Source: Nitrospirota bacterium (GTDB lineage Bacteria; Nitrospirota; Thermodesulfovibrionia; Thermodesulfovibrionales; Dissulfurispiraceae). From it: a DNA stretch of 64,000 nt. The DNA is taken from the NCBI GenBank assembly GCA_963790025.1, contig CAWBMP010000004.1, positions 1,280,001 to 1,344,000 of the forward strand, read 5' to 3'. Shown here piece by piece: positions 21,428 through 34,558 of the stretch; the stretch's first letter is position 1, and the number at the start of each line of letters is the position of its first letter. The notes below the pieces were generated by a model. That model was not told the DNA's origin. It did no database searches and was given only the letters and a program-made list of their open reading frames with translations. The position numbers and the translations under genes were made by a program.

Positions 21428-21874
21428 TCAGCATAACGAATAACGCGATAAAGGGGGCGAGATGTCTGAATAAAGGGTAAGAGGCTTTTCATGCAGCAAG
21501 GTCCTGCTGTCGCCTTCCGGCAAAGCACAGGCTTCACCCTCAGGCATAGTTATACCATGAGCAACAGGCATATGTTCCCGTTCCGGGGTTTTTCTGATTA
21601 TATTGTCTGTGGGCAGGACAGCCCTTTTTTTCAAAAAAATGATCCTGACAGCGGACTGGGAACTCCCGCTGCATGGGTGGTGAGTAATTGTTGAGCCGAT
21701 CAGTTCCAGAAGAAACAGACGGGGCATTATTATATCAACTCCGGCTGGCTCCTCAAATGCTCTGTTCAGCTGCTCACCCATGAGGGTATACGAAAGAGTT
21801 GAGACAGTAAAGAGTAAAAAGTATGACAGAAAAACAGAATGAAACAGACGGCATTTCCCCGCATCCGCACACAT
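21428..21874 (-). CDS. Hypothetical protein with N-terminal hydrophobic segment
   Basis: 148-aa ORF co-oriented upstream of pal; no family recognised. Confidence 0.4.
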   Translation of the reverse strand: MCADAGKCRLFHSVFLSYFLLFTVSTLSYTLMGEQLNRAFEEPAGVDIIMPRLFLLELIGSTITHHPCSGSSQSAVRIIFLKKRAVLPTDNIIRKTPEREHMPVAHGITMPEGEACALPEGDSRTLLHEKPLTLYSDISPPLSRYSLC

Positions 21875-22198
21875 GGGGAAATATTAACAAAAACCTATAG
21901 CCGGTAGCAAGCTGTAACTAAAAAGCGGCTAAGGGTCCCCCGCCTATAAAACTTTATTATATGGCCTTAAAAAACTTAAACTATCAAGAAATGCGTCTTG
22001 TATTGTAGTATGGCCGATATATTGGTTAATTTGTTATAATAAAGTTTTCGCGAATGGGTAGCTATGGCCATGCAAATAACTTTGGTTTAATAACAGTAAC
22101 TGTGCTGCATGCACTTTGATGAAAGACCACCTCTGCGATGGGTGGTGCATATTGCGTGCAAGAGTGAATCCAATTAAGTTATAAGGAGGATGTTTAGG

Positions 22199-23059
22199 AT
22201 GAAGGGCAATGTCCTTGTGGTTGATGATGAACAAATTGTACTCAAGAGCTGTGAGAGGGTACTTGTCCCCGAAGGTTTTGGGGTTAATATCGCTTTTTCG
22301 GCAGAAGAAGCCATCGGCTTGCTGGATAAAAACACATATGACCTTATTATTACCGATCTGAAGATGCCCGGGATGAACGGCCTGGAATTTATGGCAACAG
22401 TACGGGCCAAGGACCCGAATATTAATTTCGTAGTTATAACAGGCTACCCTTCACAGGAGAGCATAAAAGAGTCTTTGAATTTAAGAATAATCGATTACCT
22501 GCCTAAACCGTTTTCGCCGGCATTGCTTCTTGAGGTCGCCAACAAGGGAGTGGTATTCAAGCAAAAAGGCGCTGCCCCTGAAAGCAAGGATGATGTTTAC
22601 AATGCTGAAGCCGCCGGAAAGCTGGACGCAATAATACGCAACTATAAGAATAAACCCGGCAGCCTGATCCCGGTGCTCCAGGAAGCGCAGGAACTTATCG
22701 GCTTCCTCCCCCCTGTTGTGCAGCGGCACGTTGCGCGGGGCCTCGGAGTACCTGTAAGTGAAGTGCATGGCGTAGTTTCATTTTATTCTTTCTTTACAAT
22801 GAAGCCCAAGGGCAAGCACAATGTTAGAGTTTGTCTTGGCACAGCCTGCTATGTAAAAGGAGCTGAAGAAATTGTCAAGAAGTTCTCTGACGGTCTCCAC
22901 ATAGAAGTTGGCGGCATCACGGAAGACAAGAAATTCTCTCTTGAGACGGTGAGGTGCCTCGGCGCTTGTGGTCTTGCACCTGTCGTGGTAGTGGACAAGA
23001 ATGACACATACGGACATGTCAACCCTGTCAAGGTGCTGGATTTACTGAAAGACTATTAA
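22199..23059 (+). CDS. Response-regulator receiver fused to NuoE/HndA-like [2Fe-2S] subunit
   Basis: REC: VVDDE, TDLKMPGMNG, ITGY, LPKP; NuoE: LIPVLQEAQ, SFYSFF, CLGTAC, CLGAC; AGGAGG SD before ATG 22199. Confidence 0.9.
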   Translation: MKGNVLVVDDEQIVLKSCERVLVPEGFGVNIAFSAEEAIGLLDKNTYDLIITDLKMPGMNGLEFMATVRAKDPNINFVVITGYPSQESIKESLNLRIIDYLPKPFSPALLLEVANKGVVFKQKGAAPESKDDVYNAEAAGKLDAIIRNYKNKPGSLIPVLQEAQELIGFLPPVVQRHVARGLGVPVSEVHGVVSFYSFFTMKPKGKHNVRVCLGTACYVKGAEEIVKKFSDGLHIEVGGITEDKKFSLETVRCLGACGLAPVVVVDKNDTYGHVNPVKVLDLLKDY

Positions 23060-23143
23060 AAAACGATAGAGGGTAGAGGACAGAGGTTTGAGGCCTCAAA
23101 CCTCCAATTTCTTTCCTCCAACATGAATTTTTAAGGAGGCTAT

Positions 23144-27968: not shown

Positions 27969-28064
27969 AATTAAAAGCAGGTATAGGGAAAGGTTAAGGT
28001 TAAGTAAATGAAAAAACTTTCCCCCTTAACCTTTGCCTTGACCTTTACCTGTCTTATTGAGCCT

Positions 28065-28823
28065 ATGAAGGGATCCATAAAACGAAAAATATATAAGAAC
28101 AGTGGAAATTCTTTTGAGGAATTTGATGATTCCATTGCTACTGAAAAAAGACTAATAGTTTCAGTCAACGGCAAAGAGGTGCTCAGTTTTTACTGCACTC
28201 CCATTATGGTAAGGGAGCTGGTTGTCGGCATGTTTATGACCGAGGACATCATTAAGGGCGGGTGGTGCGCCGAGCGGATGGAGATACACTACGGCAAAGA
28301 GGTGCTTGTCGATATCCCTGCCGAGGGAGAGGCTTCAACAGACGGGGCTGTGATAACTTCAGGCTGCATCGGCGGCATTACTTTTCCAAAACGCCTGAAA
28401 CTGCAGAAAATCCATGATTCTTTCAATATACGCGCTGAAAGAATAAAAGCCCTGTTCAGGAAATTTCAGAACGCTTCGGAGCTTTACAAGCTAACCGGCT
28501 GTGTCCACAGTGCAGCCCTCAGCAATGGGAGCGAAATATTCTGCCTTGCCGAAGACATAGGAAGACATAATGCCGTAGATAAAGTTATCGGGTACGCAAT
28601 CCTGGAGCAAATTCCCTTCAAAGACACAATTATGCTTGCCAGCGGAAGGCTCTCCTCTGAGATTGTGTCCAAGTGCGCACGGTGGGGCATCCCTATTGTT
28701 GCGAGCCGGACCTCACCCACAAGCCTCGCCGTCGACATCGCGGAGGAAAGTGGCGTAACAGTCGTAGGTTTTGTCAGGGCCGACCGGTTGAATGTTTACA
28801 CCAATCCTCAAAGGATAAAATAG
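28065..28823 (+). CDS. fdhD: Formate dehydrogenase accessory sulfurtransferase
   Basis: TSGC, TGCVHSAAL, EDIGRHNAVDK, SGRLSSEIV; start 28065 preferred because the upstream codons derive from a hexamer repeat. Confidence 0.9.
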   Translation: MKGSIKRKIYKNSGNSFEEFDDSIATEKRLIVSVNGKEVLSFYCTPIMVRELVVGMFMTEDIIKGGWCAERMEIHYGKEVLVDIPAEGEASTDGAVITSGCIGGITFPKRLKLQKIHDSFNIRAERIKALFRKFQNASELYKLTGCVHSAALSNGSEIFCLAEDIGRHNAVDKVIGYAILEQIPFKDTIMLASGRLSSEIVSKCARWGIPIVASRTSPTSLAVDIAEESGVTVVGFVRADRLNVYTNPQRIK

Positions 28824-29126: not shown

Positions 29127-29147
29127 GGGGTCAGGTCTATAATGTTT
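29127..29147 (+). repeat. REP-like inverted repeat, left copy flanking RAYT
   Basis: GGGGTCAGGTCTATAATGTTT, exact reverse complement of 30039-30059; partial extra copy AACGGGGTCAG at 29109. Confidence 0.85.
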
Positions 29148-30003
29148 ACCTTTTTGCATGACCTCGAACAACCCGGCTTATATATGTAAAATGCAAATTG
29201 AGATGATTTGCGATTGCCCGCTGAGTATATCCAAATTCGTAGACAGCAGTAATTATTTTGCTGTCCCTCTGACTTTTATCCATTAATATGTTTTTGCTGA
29301 ATATGCTATCCAACCCGGGTCTGTTGACATACCGTTGCGTTTTGGATATTTCGGCAATATTCTTATGTTTATTGAGATGATGATTCAGGCTATCAACGAA
29401 TTCTTCTTTTCCGAGGACTACCTGGCCCTTAACAGCATTCCAAATACTTTCTTGTTCGATGCCTGATTTCACAAACTCACTGTATTTTCTTTCTGCCTCA
29501 CTCCTTTCCTCGCTGAATTGCCCTAGTATCCAGTCAGTGGTAAGACACGGATGAGGCGTTTTCTTTCCTGCGGTTTCCCCGCAGCTGGACCATTTCCAAT
29601 CTTCAGGCTGTTCAACTATGTGCGCACGTACCGGATTCAGCACAACATATCGGCACACTTCAAGAAGATGACTGTCTTTCTGGATCACAATAGCCTTATA
29701 TCTACCTTGCAACAGATGACCTGATCGGTTGCGCTTTTTGTTGTAAGCCTGGCTGTAGACACTGTTTAATTGCCTCATCCCTATGGACAGATTTCCATCC
29801 GGCGTTTCAATCATCAAATGATAATGGTTATCCATCAGACAGTAGGCATGGCATAGCCAATTGTACCGTCTATTGATATCGACAAGAATCCCAAGGAATG
29901 TTTCACGGTCAGCGTCATCCCTGAAAATTGACTTCTTCTCGTTTCCACGAGAAGTAACATGATATACAGCGCCAGGATATTGTATGCGCAACGGTCGAGC
30001 CAT
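29146..30003 (-). CDS. REP-associated tyrosine transposase (RAYT, Y1 HUH) with C-terminal HTH
   Basis: MARPLRI..PGAVYHVTSRGN, CLMDNHYHL (HUH), RYVVLNPVRA, WKWSS; start ATG 30003. Confidence 0.9.
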   Translation of the reverse strand: MARPLRIQYPGAVYHVTSRGNEKKSIFRDDADRETFLGILVDINRRYNWLCHAYCLMDNHYHLMIETPDGNLSIGMRQLNSVYSQAYNKKRNRSGHLLQGRYKAIVIQKDSHLLEVCRYVVLNPVRAHIVEQPEDWKWSSCGETAGKKTPHPCLTTDWILGQFSEERSEAERKYSEFVKSGIEQESIWNAVKGQVVLGKEEFVDSLNHHLNKHKNIAEISKTQRYVNRPGLDSIFSKNILMDKSQRDSKIITAVYEFGYTQRAIANHLNLHFTYISRVVRGHAKR

Positions 30004-30038
30004 AACAGCCAATTTATCAGATTCATCATGAACATGTA

Positions 30039-30059
30039 AAACATTATAGACCTGACCCC
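30039..30059 (-). repeat. REP-like inverted repeat, right copy flanking RAYT
   Basis: AAACATTATAGACCTGACCCC. Confidence 0.85.
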
Positions 30060-30181
30060 ATTTCCACATTTCCACATACCAATATTCTTGCCTTTTCTTT
30101 CAATTTATTGGTATGTGTCCCTATTTTTTTAGGGCTAACGAGTTTTTAATAAAACTTACCCACGACAAACAAACTGCAAAA

Positions 30182-31165
30182 CTAGGCAAATAGTAGTACG
30201 AATTGTTCAAACAGCTCCCTATGAAAGTGATTGATCATTTCCTCTCTCATGACCGTTAGTGCCTCAAAAGGAGTGAGTTTCGGTTTGTAGGATCGCTCAG
30301 CAGTCAATGCGTCATACACATCCGCAATACAGCAGAGTCTGCCATATACATGGATTTGATCGCCTTTGAGTCTGCGGGGGTACCCATTGCCGTCCTCCCT
30401 CTCGTGGTGCTGCATCTCGATAATCTTACACTCCTCCGTTAATTGGCCTGCCTCGGAAAGGATCTTGTAGCCCTGATACGGATGTGTTCTCATTTTCTGT
30501 ATCTCTTCTTTTGTAAGTCTTCCTGGCTTGTTGATTATCCCTGGATCAACACGGACTTTGCCGATATCGTGCAGGAAAAAGCCCGCTCCCAGTTCATGCA
30601 TATCATGAGCATCGGAATCTTTAAACAGTACCTTTGAAAGCATAATCGATAAAACTCCGACGTTTACCGAATGGGTGTACGTATAAAAATCATGAGATGT
30701 GATCCTCAATAAATAGTTCGCCGTAGCATCGTCCGAAATGAGAAGGTCCACGATTTCAGCAATTTCCTCTTTTGCTATTCGAATGTTTTCGGCCTTGGGG
30801 TCCGACAGCAGCTTGCCCATAAGTTCAACGGTCGACTTATATACCACTCTTGCTTTTTTCTCCGGAGCAAGTGTCCTGCTGTGAATGGCGTCTCTTAATT
30901 CATCCGAAACCAGTTTCTCAGTCTCCCACTTTTGAGGAGGCGCCAAATCCTCGTCTCCATGGCTCATTGATCCAAAATCTTCAAACGGCATTCCCTTGGA
31001 GCTATTTATATTCACCTCATCAAACCCGCCATCGATGATTTTTGCTATTTCAGAATGGTGTTTAATTGTAAATTCGTTTTTCAGGAAGGGATGATCAAGC
31101 CACGAAACAGGCAAGACGACGTGCATACCGACCTTCAACTCTTTTACCTTTATCCTCTGGATCAT
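30182..31165 (-). CDS. HD-GYP c-di-GMP phosphodiesterase with DUF3391-like N-terminus
   Basis: YTYTHSVNV, LHDIGK, HHEREDGNGYP, IADVYDALT. Confidence 0.9.
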   Translation of the reverse strand: MIQRIKVKELKVGMHVVLPVSWLDHPFLKNEFTIKHHSEIAKIIDGGFDEVNINSSKGMPFEDFGSMSHGDEDLAPPQKWETEKLVSDELRDAIHSRTLAPEKKARVVYKSTVELMGKLLSDPKAENIRIAKEEIAEIVDLLISDDATANYLLRITSHDFYTYTHSVNVGVLSIMLSKVLFKDSDAHDMHELGAGFFLHDIGKVRVDPGIINKPGRLTKEEIQKMRTHPYQGYKILSEAGQLTEECKIIEMQHHEREDGNGYPRRLKGDQIHVYGRLCCIADVYDALTAERSYKPKLTPFEALTVMREEMINHFHRELFEQFVLLFA

Positions 31166-31263
31166 ACAGCTATTTTAAACTATACCAGCATAAATTAAAA
31201 AAAGTTCTGATTTGTCCCGATTCGTTTTTGTCTGAGAGAAAAAGTAGGGTCTACCATAGGATT

Positions 31264-31460
31264 TATGCAGATGACTATGGCAGCTTTATTCATGTAAGAT
31301 ATGCTTAACGGGGGTGTGGCTTGTGGGGTCAGTGGCCTGTTCATTCAGGCTCACTTGAGTCTGAAATGCCGCCTCCGTCATCTGCATCATCCTCAAAAGG
31401 GTCGACCGGGATGGTGCCAAATGTGGCTCTGTAAGTAGACGAGACCTGAGGATGATAATC
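31264..31460 (+). ncRNA. IS110 bridge RNA (target-binding and donor-binding loops)
   Basis: Two stem/internal-loop/hairpin modules: 31308-31378 with guides GTGGGGTC and GAGTCTGA; 31386-31456 with guides CGGGATG and GTAGAC; these match the flank and end sequences. Confidence 0.8.
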
Positions 31461-31480
31461 TTGTCTGCAAAGGAGACTAC

Positions 31481-32680
31481 ATGAAAAAAGATGATCCCCT
31501 CGAACTGCGTGTAAGCGTCGATATTGGCTGCCGCAGTCACAACGTTGCAATCGGCCTATCCAGCGGTGAAGTCCTCGATGAATTCTCAATCGTGCATGAA
31601 CCTGAAGGGTTCCGGCAATTCTTCTGTCGCATCGAGAAGCAGGAGCAAAGGTTTAGTTGTCCCGTTGCCGTAGCAATGGAGGGCTTCAACGGCTACGCAC
31701 GTCCGCTGGACACGCTCGTTCGGGCCCGCAATTATCGCCTCTTCAATATCAACAATCTCAAGCTTGCTCGATTCAAGGAGATATTCCCCGGTGCCGCGAA
31801 GACCGATGCAATCGACGCAAGGAAAGGACTGGAGCTTTTTCAGCTTCGAGATCATCTGCCGATAGCCAAGGATGTGCTGCAGGAGGTACGCAAAACGCCG
31901 CGGGACAACGACATTCTAAAGCGGCTATCACGGCGCCGACGTCGTTTGGTCGATGAGCGAGTACGGGTAGTAAACAACCTACAGGCCGATCTTCACGCTG
32001 TATGTCCGGGACTTCTGGAGATTACCGGTGAGGCCGACAATATGTGGTTTCTTGGATTTCTGACCAGCACGGATGACCTTCGCACGCTTGCACGCATGCG
32101 GGAAACAACTATCCGCAAGATCCCGGGCATTGGTAAGAAATATGCCTCTGTTATTGTTGAATGGCAGAAAACAGCACAGTTTAGTCACGACGTCGAGTGG
32201 GTCGGTGAAATGATCCAGGAAGATGCAATCCGCGTGATGGAACTCCATGCCAAGATAAAATCACTTGAAGCAAAGATGGAGGGTGTTGCACACGGCTCGG
32301 ATATTGCGCAAACGCTCGCAACCATTCCAGGATTCGGTTCCATTTGTACATCTGAACTCGCCGGAGAGATTGGAACTATCGAGCGCTTTGGCAGCGAAGC
32401 AAGTCTGGCTCTGTATATTGGGATGGCGAATCTTGACAATAGTTCAGGCAAGCAAAAAGGATCAAAACCACCAACGCAGGTTAATACTCGGGCTAAGGCC
32501 GCAATGATGGTTGCCGTAGATCGGCACCGAAAACAAGTTCCGCAGTCTCAACAATATTATGAGAAAAAAAGAGCTGAAGGCAAGAAACATAACCAGGCAC
32601 TACGTGCGCTTGGTCGTCATCTTTGCCGTGTTATTTTCAAGATGCTGAAGGAGAACAGAGGGTACATCTTATCTAAATAA
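31481..32680 (+). CDS. IS110 family DEDD recombinase/transposase
   Basis: RuvC-like DEDD (SVDIG, AMEG, KTDAID), IPGFG, catalytic Ser in DNSSGK; AAGGAG SD. Confidence 0.95.
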   Translation: MKKDDPLELRVSVDIGCRSHNVAIGLSSGEVLDEFSIVHEPEGFRQFFCRIEKQEQRFSCPVAVAMEGFNGYARPLDTLVRARNYRLFNINNLKLARFKEIFPGAAKTDAIDARKGLELFQLRDHLPIAKDVLQEVRKTPRDNDILKRLSRRRRRLVDERVRVVNNLQADLHAVCPGLLEITGEADNMWFLGFLTSTDDLRTLARMRETTIRKIPGIGKKYASVIVEWQKTAQFSHDVEWVGEMIQEDAIRVMELHAKIKSLEAKMEGVAHGSDIAQTLATIPGFGSICTSELAGEIGTIERFGSEASLALYIGMANLDNSSGKQKGSKPPTQVNTRAKAAMMVAVDRHRKQVPQSQQYYEKKRAEGKKHNQALRALGRHLCRVIFKMLKENRGYILSK

Positions 32681-32831
32681 GAAAAAATATATTGAAAATT
32701 CCAGCGGGATGTTCAGGCTTGATTATATGCATTTGCGGTCCATGTGTCCATGACTATTTTCATTTATAATCCGCACCATGCTTGGAAAGTCCGATGTGTT
32801 TGTTTTTGTACGTAAAAGCGACACAAAAACC

Positions 32832-33500
32832 TTACGATTCCATCGGCAATATATTTGATTCAGAGTCAAACTTCGGGGAATTCACCGTGTTCGACACCTT
32901 ATACATTTCCATCTCTTCTGAGGGATACGGTCTTAAAATCTCCTTCAATGCCTTATAATCCTGACATGCTGGATCGAGCCATATATCCACGTCCTCTGGA
33001 GGCACGATCACCGGCATACGGTTATGAATGGACGACACTAAATCGTTAGATTCGGTTGTTATTATCGCGCAGCCGCAAATTTTATCCCCGTCAAAAGAAG
33101 ACCAATAATTATAGATTCCAGCAAAACCAAAAGGCTTTCCAGATTTTAACCTTATATAAAATGGAGTCTTCTTCTGTCTCTCCCTCTTCCACTCGTAAAA
33201 ACCATCCGCTATTACCAGGCATCTTTGCTTTTTGAATGCCTCTTTGAAACTTGGCTTTTCATCTATTGTCTCGGCTCTGGCGTTGATCATGGGGCTGCCT
33301 TCGGAAAGATCTTTTATCCATGGGGGCAAGAATCCCCATCGACACCTTATCAGTTCCCTCTTGCCTAAATTGTTTACGATGATAATTTCTTGAGAAGGGG
33401 ATACATTATAGCTCGCGGAAAGGTCGAAAGAAGGAGACTCGATATGGAATATCTCGACGACAGACGTTATCGGAGCAATCCTGACAAAGCGGCCACACAT
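32832..33500 (-). CDS. SOS response-associated peptidase (SRAP/YedK/HMCES)
   Basis: N-terminal MCGRF, INARAET, DGFYEW, IHNRMPV. Confidence 0.95.
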   Translation of the reverse strand: MCGRFVRIAPITSVVEIFHIESPSFDLSASYNVSPSQEIIIVNNLGKRELIRCRWGFLPPWIKDLSEGSPMINARAETIDEKPSFKEAFKKQRCLVIADGFYEWKRERQKKTPFYIRLKSGKPFGFAGIYNYWSSFDGDKICGCAIITTESNDLVSSIHNRMPVIVPPEDVDIWLDPACQDYKALKEILRPYPSEEMEMYKVSNTVNSPKFDSESNILPMES

Positions 33501-33710
33501 AAATTAAGATACCATACCAGCCGTCCAGAGTGAGGACCATCTCGACTTATAACCCACCTGCCGTTTATGATATAACCATGACAATTTTCTACGGAATCAT
33601 TCCACTCGGCGCGGTTTTATTACGGCTCTACCTCCTGATTTCTTTCCTGAGCAGAAAACACCGGATATAAAATAGGAAACGCGGCAGTCTTTACTTAAAG
33701 GAGACCCACT

Positions 33711-33854
33711 ATGACAATTGCATGGGAGAAGTTGGAAAGCGAGACACGGGGCGTGGCAGACATATACCGGACTAAGGTTCCCGGCGGCTGGTTAGTGACG
33801 GCCCATGGTGGCGGGATAATGTTTGTACCTGATCCCAACCACAAATGGAAATAA
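33711..33854 (+). CDS. 47-aa small protein (not in ORF track)
   Basis: AAAGGAGA SD; MTIAWEKL...RTKVPGGWLV...IMFVPDPNHKWK; TAATG overlap with resolvase start. Confidence 0.75.
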   Translation: MTIAWEKLESETRGVADIYRTKVPGGWLVTAHGGGIMFVPDPNHKWK

Positions 33855-34558
33855 TGAGAACAGCTATTTACGCCCGAGTATCAACAGTCGATAAGGGCCA
33901 GGATCCGGAAATCCAGCTTCGGCCGCTCAGAGAATACTGCCAAGCTAGAAGCATGGAGATCGCTGGCGAGTATGTGGATCACATGACCGGCAGCAAGGAC
34001 CGGAGGCCTGAACTGGACAAATTAATGGATGCAGCTCGCAAGCGCCAGATCGATTGCATTATAGTTTGGAAGCTGGACAGGTTCGGCAGATCTCTTAAGC
34101 ATCTGGTAACTTCCATTGATGAGCTGAACAGCCTAGGCGTCGCTTTTATCAGCTATCAGGAAAACATCGATCTCTCCACGGCAGCCGGTAAACTCATGTT
34201 ACACATCATCGGCGCCATGGCCGAATTTGAGCGCGAGCTGATAGGGGAAAGAGTGAAAGCCGGAATTGTGAACAGCCGTGCGAAAGGTAAGGCGCATGGA
34301 AGGAAGTCTTTAGCGCCTGTTGATATCAGAAGGGTGATCGAGGCCTTCGAACAGGAGCCCACTGCTTCAGTTCGTAAGCTGGCTAAGCTAACTAATGTCC
34401 CTAAGTCATCAGTGGGCCGTATATTGACAGACTTTAAGGCAGGGCTCCTGGACCAGGATGGTCTGCGTTATGCAGCCCCTCTTTTGCCTGTCCCAAAAAC
34501 CACCTCAGATTCCGGGGGGCAAGATGACCAAAAGACGCCACTTTTGCCGGTCGTATGA
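33854..34558 (+). CDS. Serine recombinase (resolvase/invertase family) with C-terminal HTH
   Basis: AIYARVST, KLDRFGRS, MAEFERELI; start 33854 coupled to the upstream ORF. Confidence 0.95.
   Translation: MRTAIYARVSTVDKGQDPEIQLRPLREYCQARSMEIAGEYVDHMTGSKDRRPELDKLMDAARKRQIDCIIVWKLDRFGRSLKHLVTSIDELNSLGVAFISYQENIDLSTAAGKLMLHIIGAMAEFERELIGERVKAGIVNSRAKGKAHGRKSLAPVDIRRVIEAFEQEPTASVRKLAKLTNVPKSSVGRILTDFKAGLLDQDGLRYAAPLLPVPKTTSDSGGQDDQKTPLLPVV

Follow-up and report, generated by a model that had tools for sequence, protein, structure and literature searches.

The closest precedents for the gene cluster described here are the predicted Nuo-Bfu enzymes and the receiver subunit of mycobacterial complex I. 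Nuo-Bfu was predicted as a complex I with a BfuABC head, its BfuB sequences falling into clades 38 and 39, the latter including Nitrospirae (Schut et al. 2022, PMC9304861); the term "response regulator" is absent from the main text of that study and from one of its supplementary files. For NfnABC, PMC11829005 describes a C subunit whose N-terminal domain is embedded between A, at its Fdh-like domain, and B, at its Rossmann fold, and anchors the subunit while its cluster domain moves, and assigns the C1 cluster to the proposed bifurcation site. Gating of Bfu enzymes has been attributed to substrate binding and domain movement, and phospho-regulation is not described in the accessible parts of the Bfu literature cited here. 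In mycobacteria, the orphan response regulator MSMEG_2064/Rv3143 was reported as a subunit of complex I (PMC10068793, PMC9274095), namely a stand-alone protein bound at NuoB/A/C/I with a buried Asp and no known kinase. Caulobacter FixT provides a receiver coupled to an Fe-S cluster within a two-component circuit, in which the receiver itself binds the cluster and inhibits its kinase (PMC7078487). No description of a receiver-NuoE fusion was found in the literature searched, which largely excluded subscription journals, so a mention elsewhere is possible. The absence of a characterised example, as claimed in an earlier note on this DNA, thus holds for the fusion within that literature, while the mycobacterial protein shows that a separate receiver can be a complex I subunit.

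The window analysed here is a 64,000-nucleotide stretch of a Nitrospirota genome (G000; all other G, L and P numbers denote further genomes, loci and proteins compared). It contains an operon with a gene that joins a receiver to a NuoE/HydC/BfuC-type subunit (Table 1). Translation of this gene gave a single reading frame with zero internal stops, preceded by an AAGGAGG ribosome site 9 nt 5' of the ATG at 22199. Pfam assigned residues 5-113 to Response_reg (E 1.5e-25) and residues 143-286 to 2Fe-2S_thioredx (PF01257, E 2.5e-48), which we take, by the InterPro-to-Pfam mapping, to be the NuoE-like domain of BfuC. The receiver contains D9, D10, the phospho-acceptor D53 (codon at window positions 22355-22357), T81, K103 and P104, and the NuoE-like part carries the four [2Fe-2S] cysteines C212/C217/C253/C257. 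All of these residues were kept in 166 of 166 distinct full-length homologues, a set collected by similarity, with four decayed copies turning up later. The earlier note's description of an intact receiver (acidic pair, phospho-Asp, Thr, Lys-Pro) joined in frame to a complete four-cysteine NuoE-like domain is therefore confirmed.

Table 1. Features of the operon and its surroundings, in window coordinates.
Feature	Position	Strand	Basis or remark
148-aa ORF upstream of the operon	21428..21874	-	ORFs of similar length in the corresponding place in L002, L003
sigma54-like motif, imperfect (GG...GG for GG...GC)	22011..22026	+	pattern scan
Extended -10-like element, TGn-TATAAT	22032..22040	+	read from sequence, also in L003
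REC-GcvH-like gene remnant, 3' end	22089..22184	+	tblastn, HMM
REC-NuoE/HydC/BfuC fusion, 286 aa	22199..23059	+	Pfam and alignment
9-bp GC hairpin followed by T-rich tail	23083..23104	+	between fusion gene and hndB
HndB/HydD-like thioredoxin-fold small subunit, 127 aa	23144..23527	+	weak, sub-cut-off PF01257; NF041612
NuoF/HydB/BfuB, 627 aa	23625..25508	+	Pfam, bifurcating signature
NuoG/FdhA-like BfuA, 817 aa	25515..27968	+	Pfam, alignment to 6tg9_A
FdhD sulfurtransferase	28008..28823	+	Pfam and annotation; lineage-specific addition
IS200-like transposase, downstream of fdhD	29146..30075	-	
HD-GYP-like gene	30182..31165	-	
More mobile-looking ORFs	within 29146..34558		

Comparison of residues 138-286 with solved structures identified HydC/NfnC/BfuC of HydABC, NiFe-HydABCSL and NfnABC (8a6t, 7t2r, 7q4v, 9bov, 9n5u) as the closest relatives (E about 1e-32 to 1e-41), with which the fusion shares the four C1-cluster cysteines. 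The best PDB sequence matches were HydC of bifurcating hydrogenases (8a6t_C, 7t2r_C, 7q4v_C), and none of the 60 matches listed spans both domains. The receiver fold superimposed on Spo0F (6ifh) with an rmsd of 1.3 A, and a fold search matched each domain only separately. In a single-chain model (pTM 0.51) the two domains had no mutual orientation and the linker at about residues 124-132 a pLDDT <50. Contigs of run X1 cross the fusion junction without differences; as they possibly derive from the source sample, they were left out as support for it. A second copy of the 5' end of the fusion gene, including the ribosome site and about 75% identical, lies at G000:C5:563335-562969 (L105); it has a frameshift near the phospho-Asp, stops before the NuoE part and is probably a pseudogene fragment.

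Uniqueness to this assembly, which the earlier note had set beforehand as refuting, was not observed, since the fusion occurs in 196 of 301 genomes of the class, as judged by a proxy for full length (best E-value <=1e-80, with the best 150 matches listed), and related fusions occur in other phyla. It was absent from one genus (15 genomes) and most of family f11. All of the best 120 matches listed in a homologue search were full-length with both Pfam domains at 67-95% identity, so the fusion is no assembly artefact; their named taxa were mostly Nitrospirota. A profile search recovered further receiver-NuoE fusions of <50% identity, including a family of about 370 aa with 394 matches at E <=1e-60 and names such as Deltaproteobacteria and Rectinema. 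Similar proteins were found in two Acidobacteriota loci next to a kinase and an NtrC-like gene. An AU test rejected a single clade for the two fusion families alone (p 0.004) and did not reject it for all fused rows together (p 0.2), the REC tree being a quick build of poor resolution. Other signalling architectures were seen as well: P0183 combines the HATPase-like domain of the cassette described below with a NuoE domain and represents a second kind of signalling fusion at the N-terminus of NuoE, and P0122, P0127 and P0189 combine a receiver with the N-terminal helical region of NuoE without the cluster domain, some in tandem, as possible decoy subunits.

Regarding the remaining operon genes, the HndB-like gene follows the fusion in 41 of 45 loci, and NuoF and NuoG do so in all 45 loci with enough DNA. 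The NuoF of the window comprises an N-terminal [2Fe-2S] thioredoxin domain, an FMN domain and a C-terminal 2x[4Fe-4S] domain (PF01512, PF10589 and two Fer4 stretches); SLBB is not among the Pfam matches listed, and the GGPSG motif of the SLBB region is present. Residues A/E232, M234, F367 and GGPSG are given as markers of bifurcating enzymes in PMC7311640, and the window protein displays this signature (A-F-M, F, GGPSG), while the conventional NuoF of the same genome shows the non-bifurcating pattern (T-F-K, Y, GGIST). The Fe-S motifs of the 817-aa BfuA are intact (Fer2_4, NADH-G_4Fe-4S_3, Fer4_Nqo3 and Molybdop_Fe4S4 in Pfam). Alignment with R. capsulatus FdsA revealed that the Mo-ligating Cys/Sec and the neighbouring His are replaced by Gly and Tyr, and the Mo ligand was kept in none of the BfuA homologues with the motif captured; the subunit is predicted to lack a catalytic pterin site. 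A NuoG/FdhA tree placed it no closer to NuoG than to FdhA, with deep forks unsupported either way.

The gene order gamma-beta-alpha, the FdhD neighbour and the best PDB match of the 817-aa subunit resemble FdsGBA (6tg9). However, the replaced Mo-ligating Cys and adjacent His, the bifurcating-type beta subunit and the absence of fdhD from 37 of 45 loci with enough downstream DNA set the operon apart, and a formate dehydrogenase identity was rejected on account of the lost Mo ligand. A hydrogenase identity was rejected because the [FeFe] H-cluster family (PF02906) was not found in the genome (98.8% complete), whereas control genomes matched. Unlike HydABC, NiFe-HydABCSL and NfnABC, the operon is devoid of an H-cluster, NiFe or NADPH domain. 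From the signature and the missing Mo ligand and H-cluster, we concluded that it encodes a BfuABC-type core without its own third-substrate site, a bifurcating-type module by its genes with presumed bifurcating activity. Two additions were noted at other loci. In 7 of 45 loci (L001, L002, L006, L007, L096, L097, L098) nuoG and fdhD are separated by a gene for a PAS-GAF-GAF protein without output domain, which is absent from the window, and an NfnS/NfnL-like pair is located within the operon in 5 of 60 loci (L093, L119, L127, L129, L123), four of them with nuoF-nuoG tandem-duplicated; the NuoF (BfuB) of L123 is a 1047-aa protein with a fused GltD-like domain.

The module of the window resembles Nuo-Bfu in its BfuC, its bifurcating-type BfuB and a BfuA that is the size of NuoG and has no catalytic site of its own. 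Two Geobacteraceae loci (L124, L125) carry the Nuo-Bfu head inside the nuo operon, and their proteins share 43% (NuoE), 50-51% (NuoF) and 36-37% (NuoG) identity with those of the window. In Geobacteraceae, however, NuoE is 170-171 aa long and lacks the receiver that the BfuC of the window carries. Unlike Nuo-Bfu, the module adds the HndB-like subunit, and in relatives the genes of the head usually make up an operon of their own or a divergent one, which also includes a kinase, further receivers and a DRTGG/kinase/PHP cassette. While this genome does not have bfuABC amid a 14-gene nuo cluster, G090 does: a single strand reads nuoABCD, kinase, lone receiver, fusion, hndB, nuoF, nuoG, DRTGG/kinase/PHP/HATPase cassette and nuoHIJKLMN, and the module fills the nuoEFG slot of its complex I operon. 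A conventional NuoF orthologue was not found in G090 (best match 49%, versus 68-71% for true orthologues). The module also runs in the same direction as nuo genes in G004 and G166, and nuoA adjoins it in 15 of 40 loci (14 divergent), the other 25 having no nuoA within the DNA stretch examined. In the genome of the window, a nuoABCDHIJKLMN operon without EFG lies about 190 kb from the module; the genome further encodes a conventional NuoEFG as well as a second nuo operon that is complete. We filed the module as one that probably works like Nuo-Bfu, not as a textbook member.

We therefore favour, at about even probability, that the module is an alternative electron-input head for complex I and is regulated by phosphorylation. 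A rather unlikely alternative retains the same phospho-control and makes the module a soluble NADH/ferredoxin/NADPH hub for a separate formate dehydrogenase or an Nfn transhydrogenase rather than for complex I. FdhD after the module and two selenocysteine-type FdhA genes in this genome would fit such a hub, but fdhD is found at only 8 of 45 loci and BfuA lacks the Mo ligand; the NfnS/NfnL-like genes at 5 of 60 loci, the one BfuB with a GltD-like domain, the equal closeness of BfuA to FdhA and NuoG and the conventional NuoEFG kept inside the nuo operon in 7 of 40 loci fit as well, whereas the H-cluster family not found in the genome and the nuoEFG slot occupied in G090 speak against it. As for the gene copies concerned, both FdhA genes (G000:C4:299459-303762 and about 694408) have an in-frame stop at the catalytic Cys/Sec, and one of them comes after a NuoE-NuoF fusion without the NuoE cluster domain. 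The conventional nuoEFG (G000:C4:536405-531278, L102) lies away from the EFG-less nuo operon and has its nuoG split between two frames, possibly through an error of assembly; an intact REC-GcvH-like gene directly follows it and a pyrophosphatase-like gene adjoins.

For the preferred complex I head, control by phosphorylation would require a kinase. None is adjacent to the fusion in the window, as the earlier note had stated, but an orthologous HAMP-HisKA-HATPase kinase is encoded elsewhere in the same genome, 160 kb off (G000:C4:1462265-1463407), so the fused receiver is not an orphan. Analysis of 40 related loci placed this kinase upstream of the fusion in the same operon and on the same strand in 19, and it was present in 185 of 196 fusion genomes versus 16 of 105 others, counts that overstate independence because the genomes are kin. 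Seven of the 11 kinase-less fusion genomes were rechecked; five had a sub-threshold candidate (45-57% identity) and G166 none. In G080 (98% complete, 80 contigs) the receiver is intact and no kinase above 38% identity was found. The periplasmic part of the kinase in most relatives carries CxxCH and CxxxxCH (haem-c-type) motifs, whereas the form encoded in this genome, 380 aa long, lacks the periplasmic domain. It belongs to L101 (G000:C4:1459732-1463963), together with DRTGG, anti-sigma-kinase-like, DRTGG-like, PHP and HATPase genes and a divergent lone receiver; at 24 of 40 loci the module is found together with genes of this DRTGG/kinase/PHP/HATPase cassette.

Helix alpha1 of a receiver is its kinase-docking helix. 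In this genome, the alpha1 motif SC.R occurs in only 4 of 80 receiver matches, namely the fusion, the lone REC beside the kinase, the REC-GcvH-like protein and the broken fusion copy, and an SC/SA motif is common to the operon's receivers in relatives (47/50, 35/36, 14/15 and 4/6). Synteny, co-occurrence and the alpha1 motif make the kinase a candidate cognate partner of the fused receiver. MSMEG_2064/Rv3143 is physically tied to complex I and proposed to control its assembly or activity through phosphorylation, and the fused receiver would be a comparable case; unlike the mycobacterial protein, the receiver of the window is fused to a bifurcating-type input head, and a candidate kinase is identifiable.

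Natural variants connect the phospho-site with this kinase. Three genomes of genus g5 (G050, G116, G147), scoring just under the fusion cut-off, still encode the fusion at full length, but the acidic pair, D53 and the lysine are missing from its receiver; in G166 the Thr, the Lys and part of the pocket are gone. The kinase was not found in G050, G116 and G166, and G147 retains only 255 aa of it, with the sensor and HAMP domains missing, at the head of the cassette. The bifurcating signature of NuoF was kept in the three decayed-receiver loci examined. Cysteines of the HndB-like subunit are changed to serines in L136 and L137 (G050, G116) and kept in G147. In G144 (L033) the receiver is gone while kinase and module are retained, which indicates that the receiver is dispensable. 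Decay together with the kinase and this loss point to a regulatory, dispensable receiver whose phospho-site appears to be maintained by the kinase, with about two independent decay events. A phospho-site that is intact almost only in kinase-keeping genomes suggests direct control of the enzyme by the kinase.

These variants also bear on the very unlikely reading of the receiver as a structural or passenger domain derived from a neighbouring gene, phosphorylated without regulatory effect. Receiver genes directly upstream of the NuoE-type gene mean that such a fusion could easily arise, MSMEG_2064 is reported to be required for complex I assembly with its Asp buried (PMC10068793), and decayed receivers are still present in four genomes. 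Yet homologues across the class, at pairwise identities of at least 47%, keep all catalytic residues, and decay of these residues goes with loss or truncation of the kinase; the family of about 370 aa retains the phospho-Asp in 116 of 120 sequences, and at the locus of the window the REC-GcvH-like neighbour decayed and the fused receiver did not.

The region upstream of the fusion gene holds the 3' end of that neighbour (tblastn 52% over 31 aa, E 8e-9; HMM E 1.4e-5), whose protein matches GCV_H at or below the cut-off. In 45 of 56 loci the fusion comes after a REC-GcvH-like gene, the usual operon start. The fusion, described earlier as heading the operon, does so at present but only secondarily. 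Intact -24/-12 motifs were detected 5' of the REC-GcvH-like first gene in 20 of 35 relatives, compared with 2.5% of random windows. The sigma54-like motif of the window is possibly a decayed ancestral promoter; it is not conserved in L003, and the strict sigma54 pattern occurs in the window at chance-level counts. The -10-like element, matched against what we take to be the extended -10 consensus, is a candidate present-day promoter. An NtrC-like activator adjoins the operon in 4 of 40 loci, and an orthologue of this regulator was not found in the genome of the window (best matches 41-50%, versus 60-66% among orthologues), so the identified targets of the kinase in this genome are non-DNA-binding.

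With these regulatory genes in mind, the receiver may instead serve as an input through which the complex signals its own redox state. It would then act as a phosphate sink or as a feedback inhibitor, available or not depending on the module's redox state or assembly, and would tune the kinase signal to a sigma54 activator and other receivers; we consider this improbable. Up to four receivers, an NtrC-like activator among them, appear to share one kinase, the ancestral operon carries the sigma54 motif at 20 of 35 loci, the receiver tether appears flexible in the single-chain model, and FixT offers a precedent for an Fe-S-binding receiver as feedback regulator (PMC7078487), although the cluster of the fusion belongs to a separate enzyme domain. 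In this genome, however, the NtrC-like gene was not found, the REC-GcvH-like neighbour is decayed and the sigma54 motif is imperfect, yet the fused phospho-site is intact. The output face of the receiver also argues for a role beyond that of an input. Residues Q86 (166/166), I97 (164/166) and P102 (164/166) on the beta4-alpha4-beta5 face of the fusion homologues differ from those of the sister receivers and are thus fusion-specific, suggesting a conserved partner, and two of the three genus-g5 receivers without phospho-site still have a PSQES-like motif. A complex prediction of the receiver (1-123) against NuoF (1-602) and the NuoE part, with BfuA left out, scored 0.00 and is evidence neither way.

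For the preferred reading as a complex I head, we infer phosphorylation, kinase pairing, contact surface, docking, bifurcating activity and direction of control as follows. REC-BfuC, the HndB-like subunit, BfuB and the pterin-less BfuA would form an NADH/ferredoxin module that docks as an alternative head on the complex I arm (NuoA-D, H-N). The HAMP-HisKA-HATPase kinase would phosphorylate D53, and the phosphorylated receiver would act on the module itself via its beta4-alpha4-beta5 face. Control would most likely concern how BfuC is anchored between BfuA and BfuB, or how the head docks, and hence which head serves complex I; this is preferred because, by analogy with NfnABC, the receiver is joined at the anchored end of BfuC. 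More tentatively, and with clearly less than even probability, a kinase of haem-c ancestry may phosphorylate BfuC and thereby switch complex I between NADH and NADH-plus-ferredoxin heads without new expression. The direct two-component gating of a redox complex proposed in the earlier note thus gains comparative support from the invariant phospho-site, the docking-helix motif, the co-occurrence and co-decay with the kinase and the lack of a detected cognate DNA-binding regulator in this genome, while its effect and the receiver's contact surface are a matter of prediction.

A receiver on the subunit carrying the C1 cluster, together with D53, a candidate kinase and naturally decayed variants, provides a handle on post-translational control. 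The fusion also opens a route to testing the predicted Nuo-Bfu and exchangeable complex I heads in anaerobes, and as the module subunits are all soluble, heterologous expression should be possible. If the proposal is true, the receiver-BfuC fusions of several anaerobic phyla would represent a general phospho-switch for electron bifurcation.
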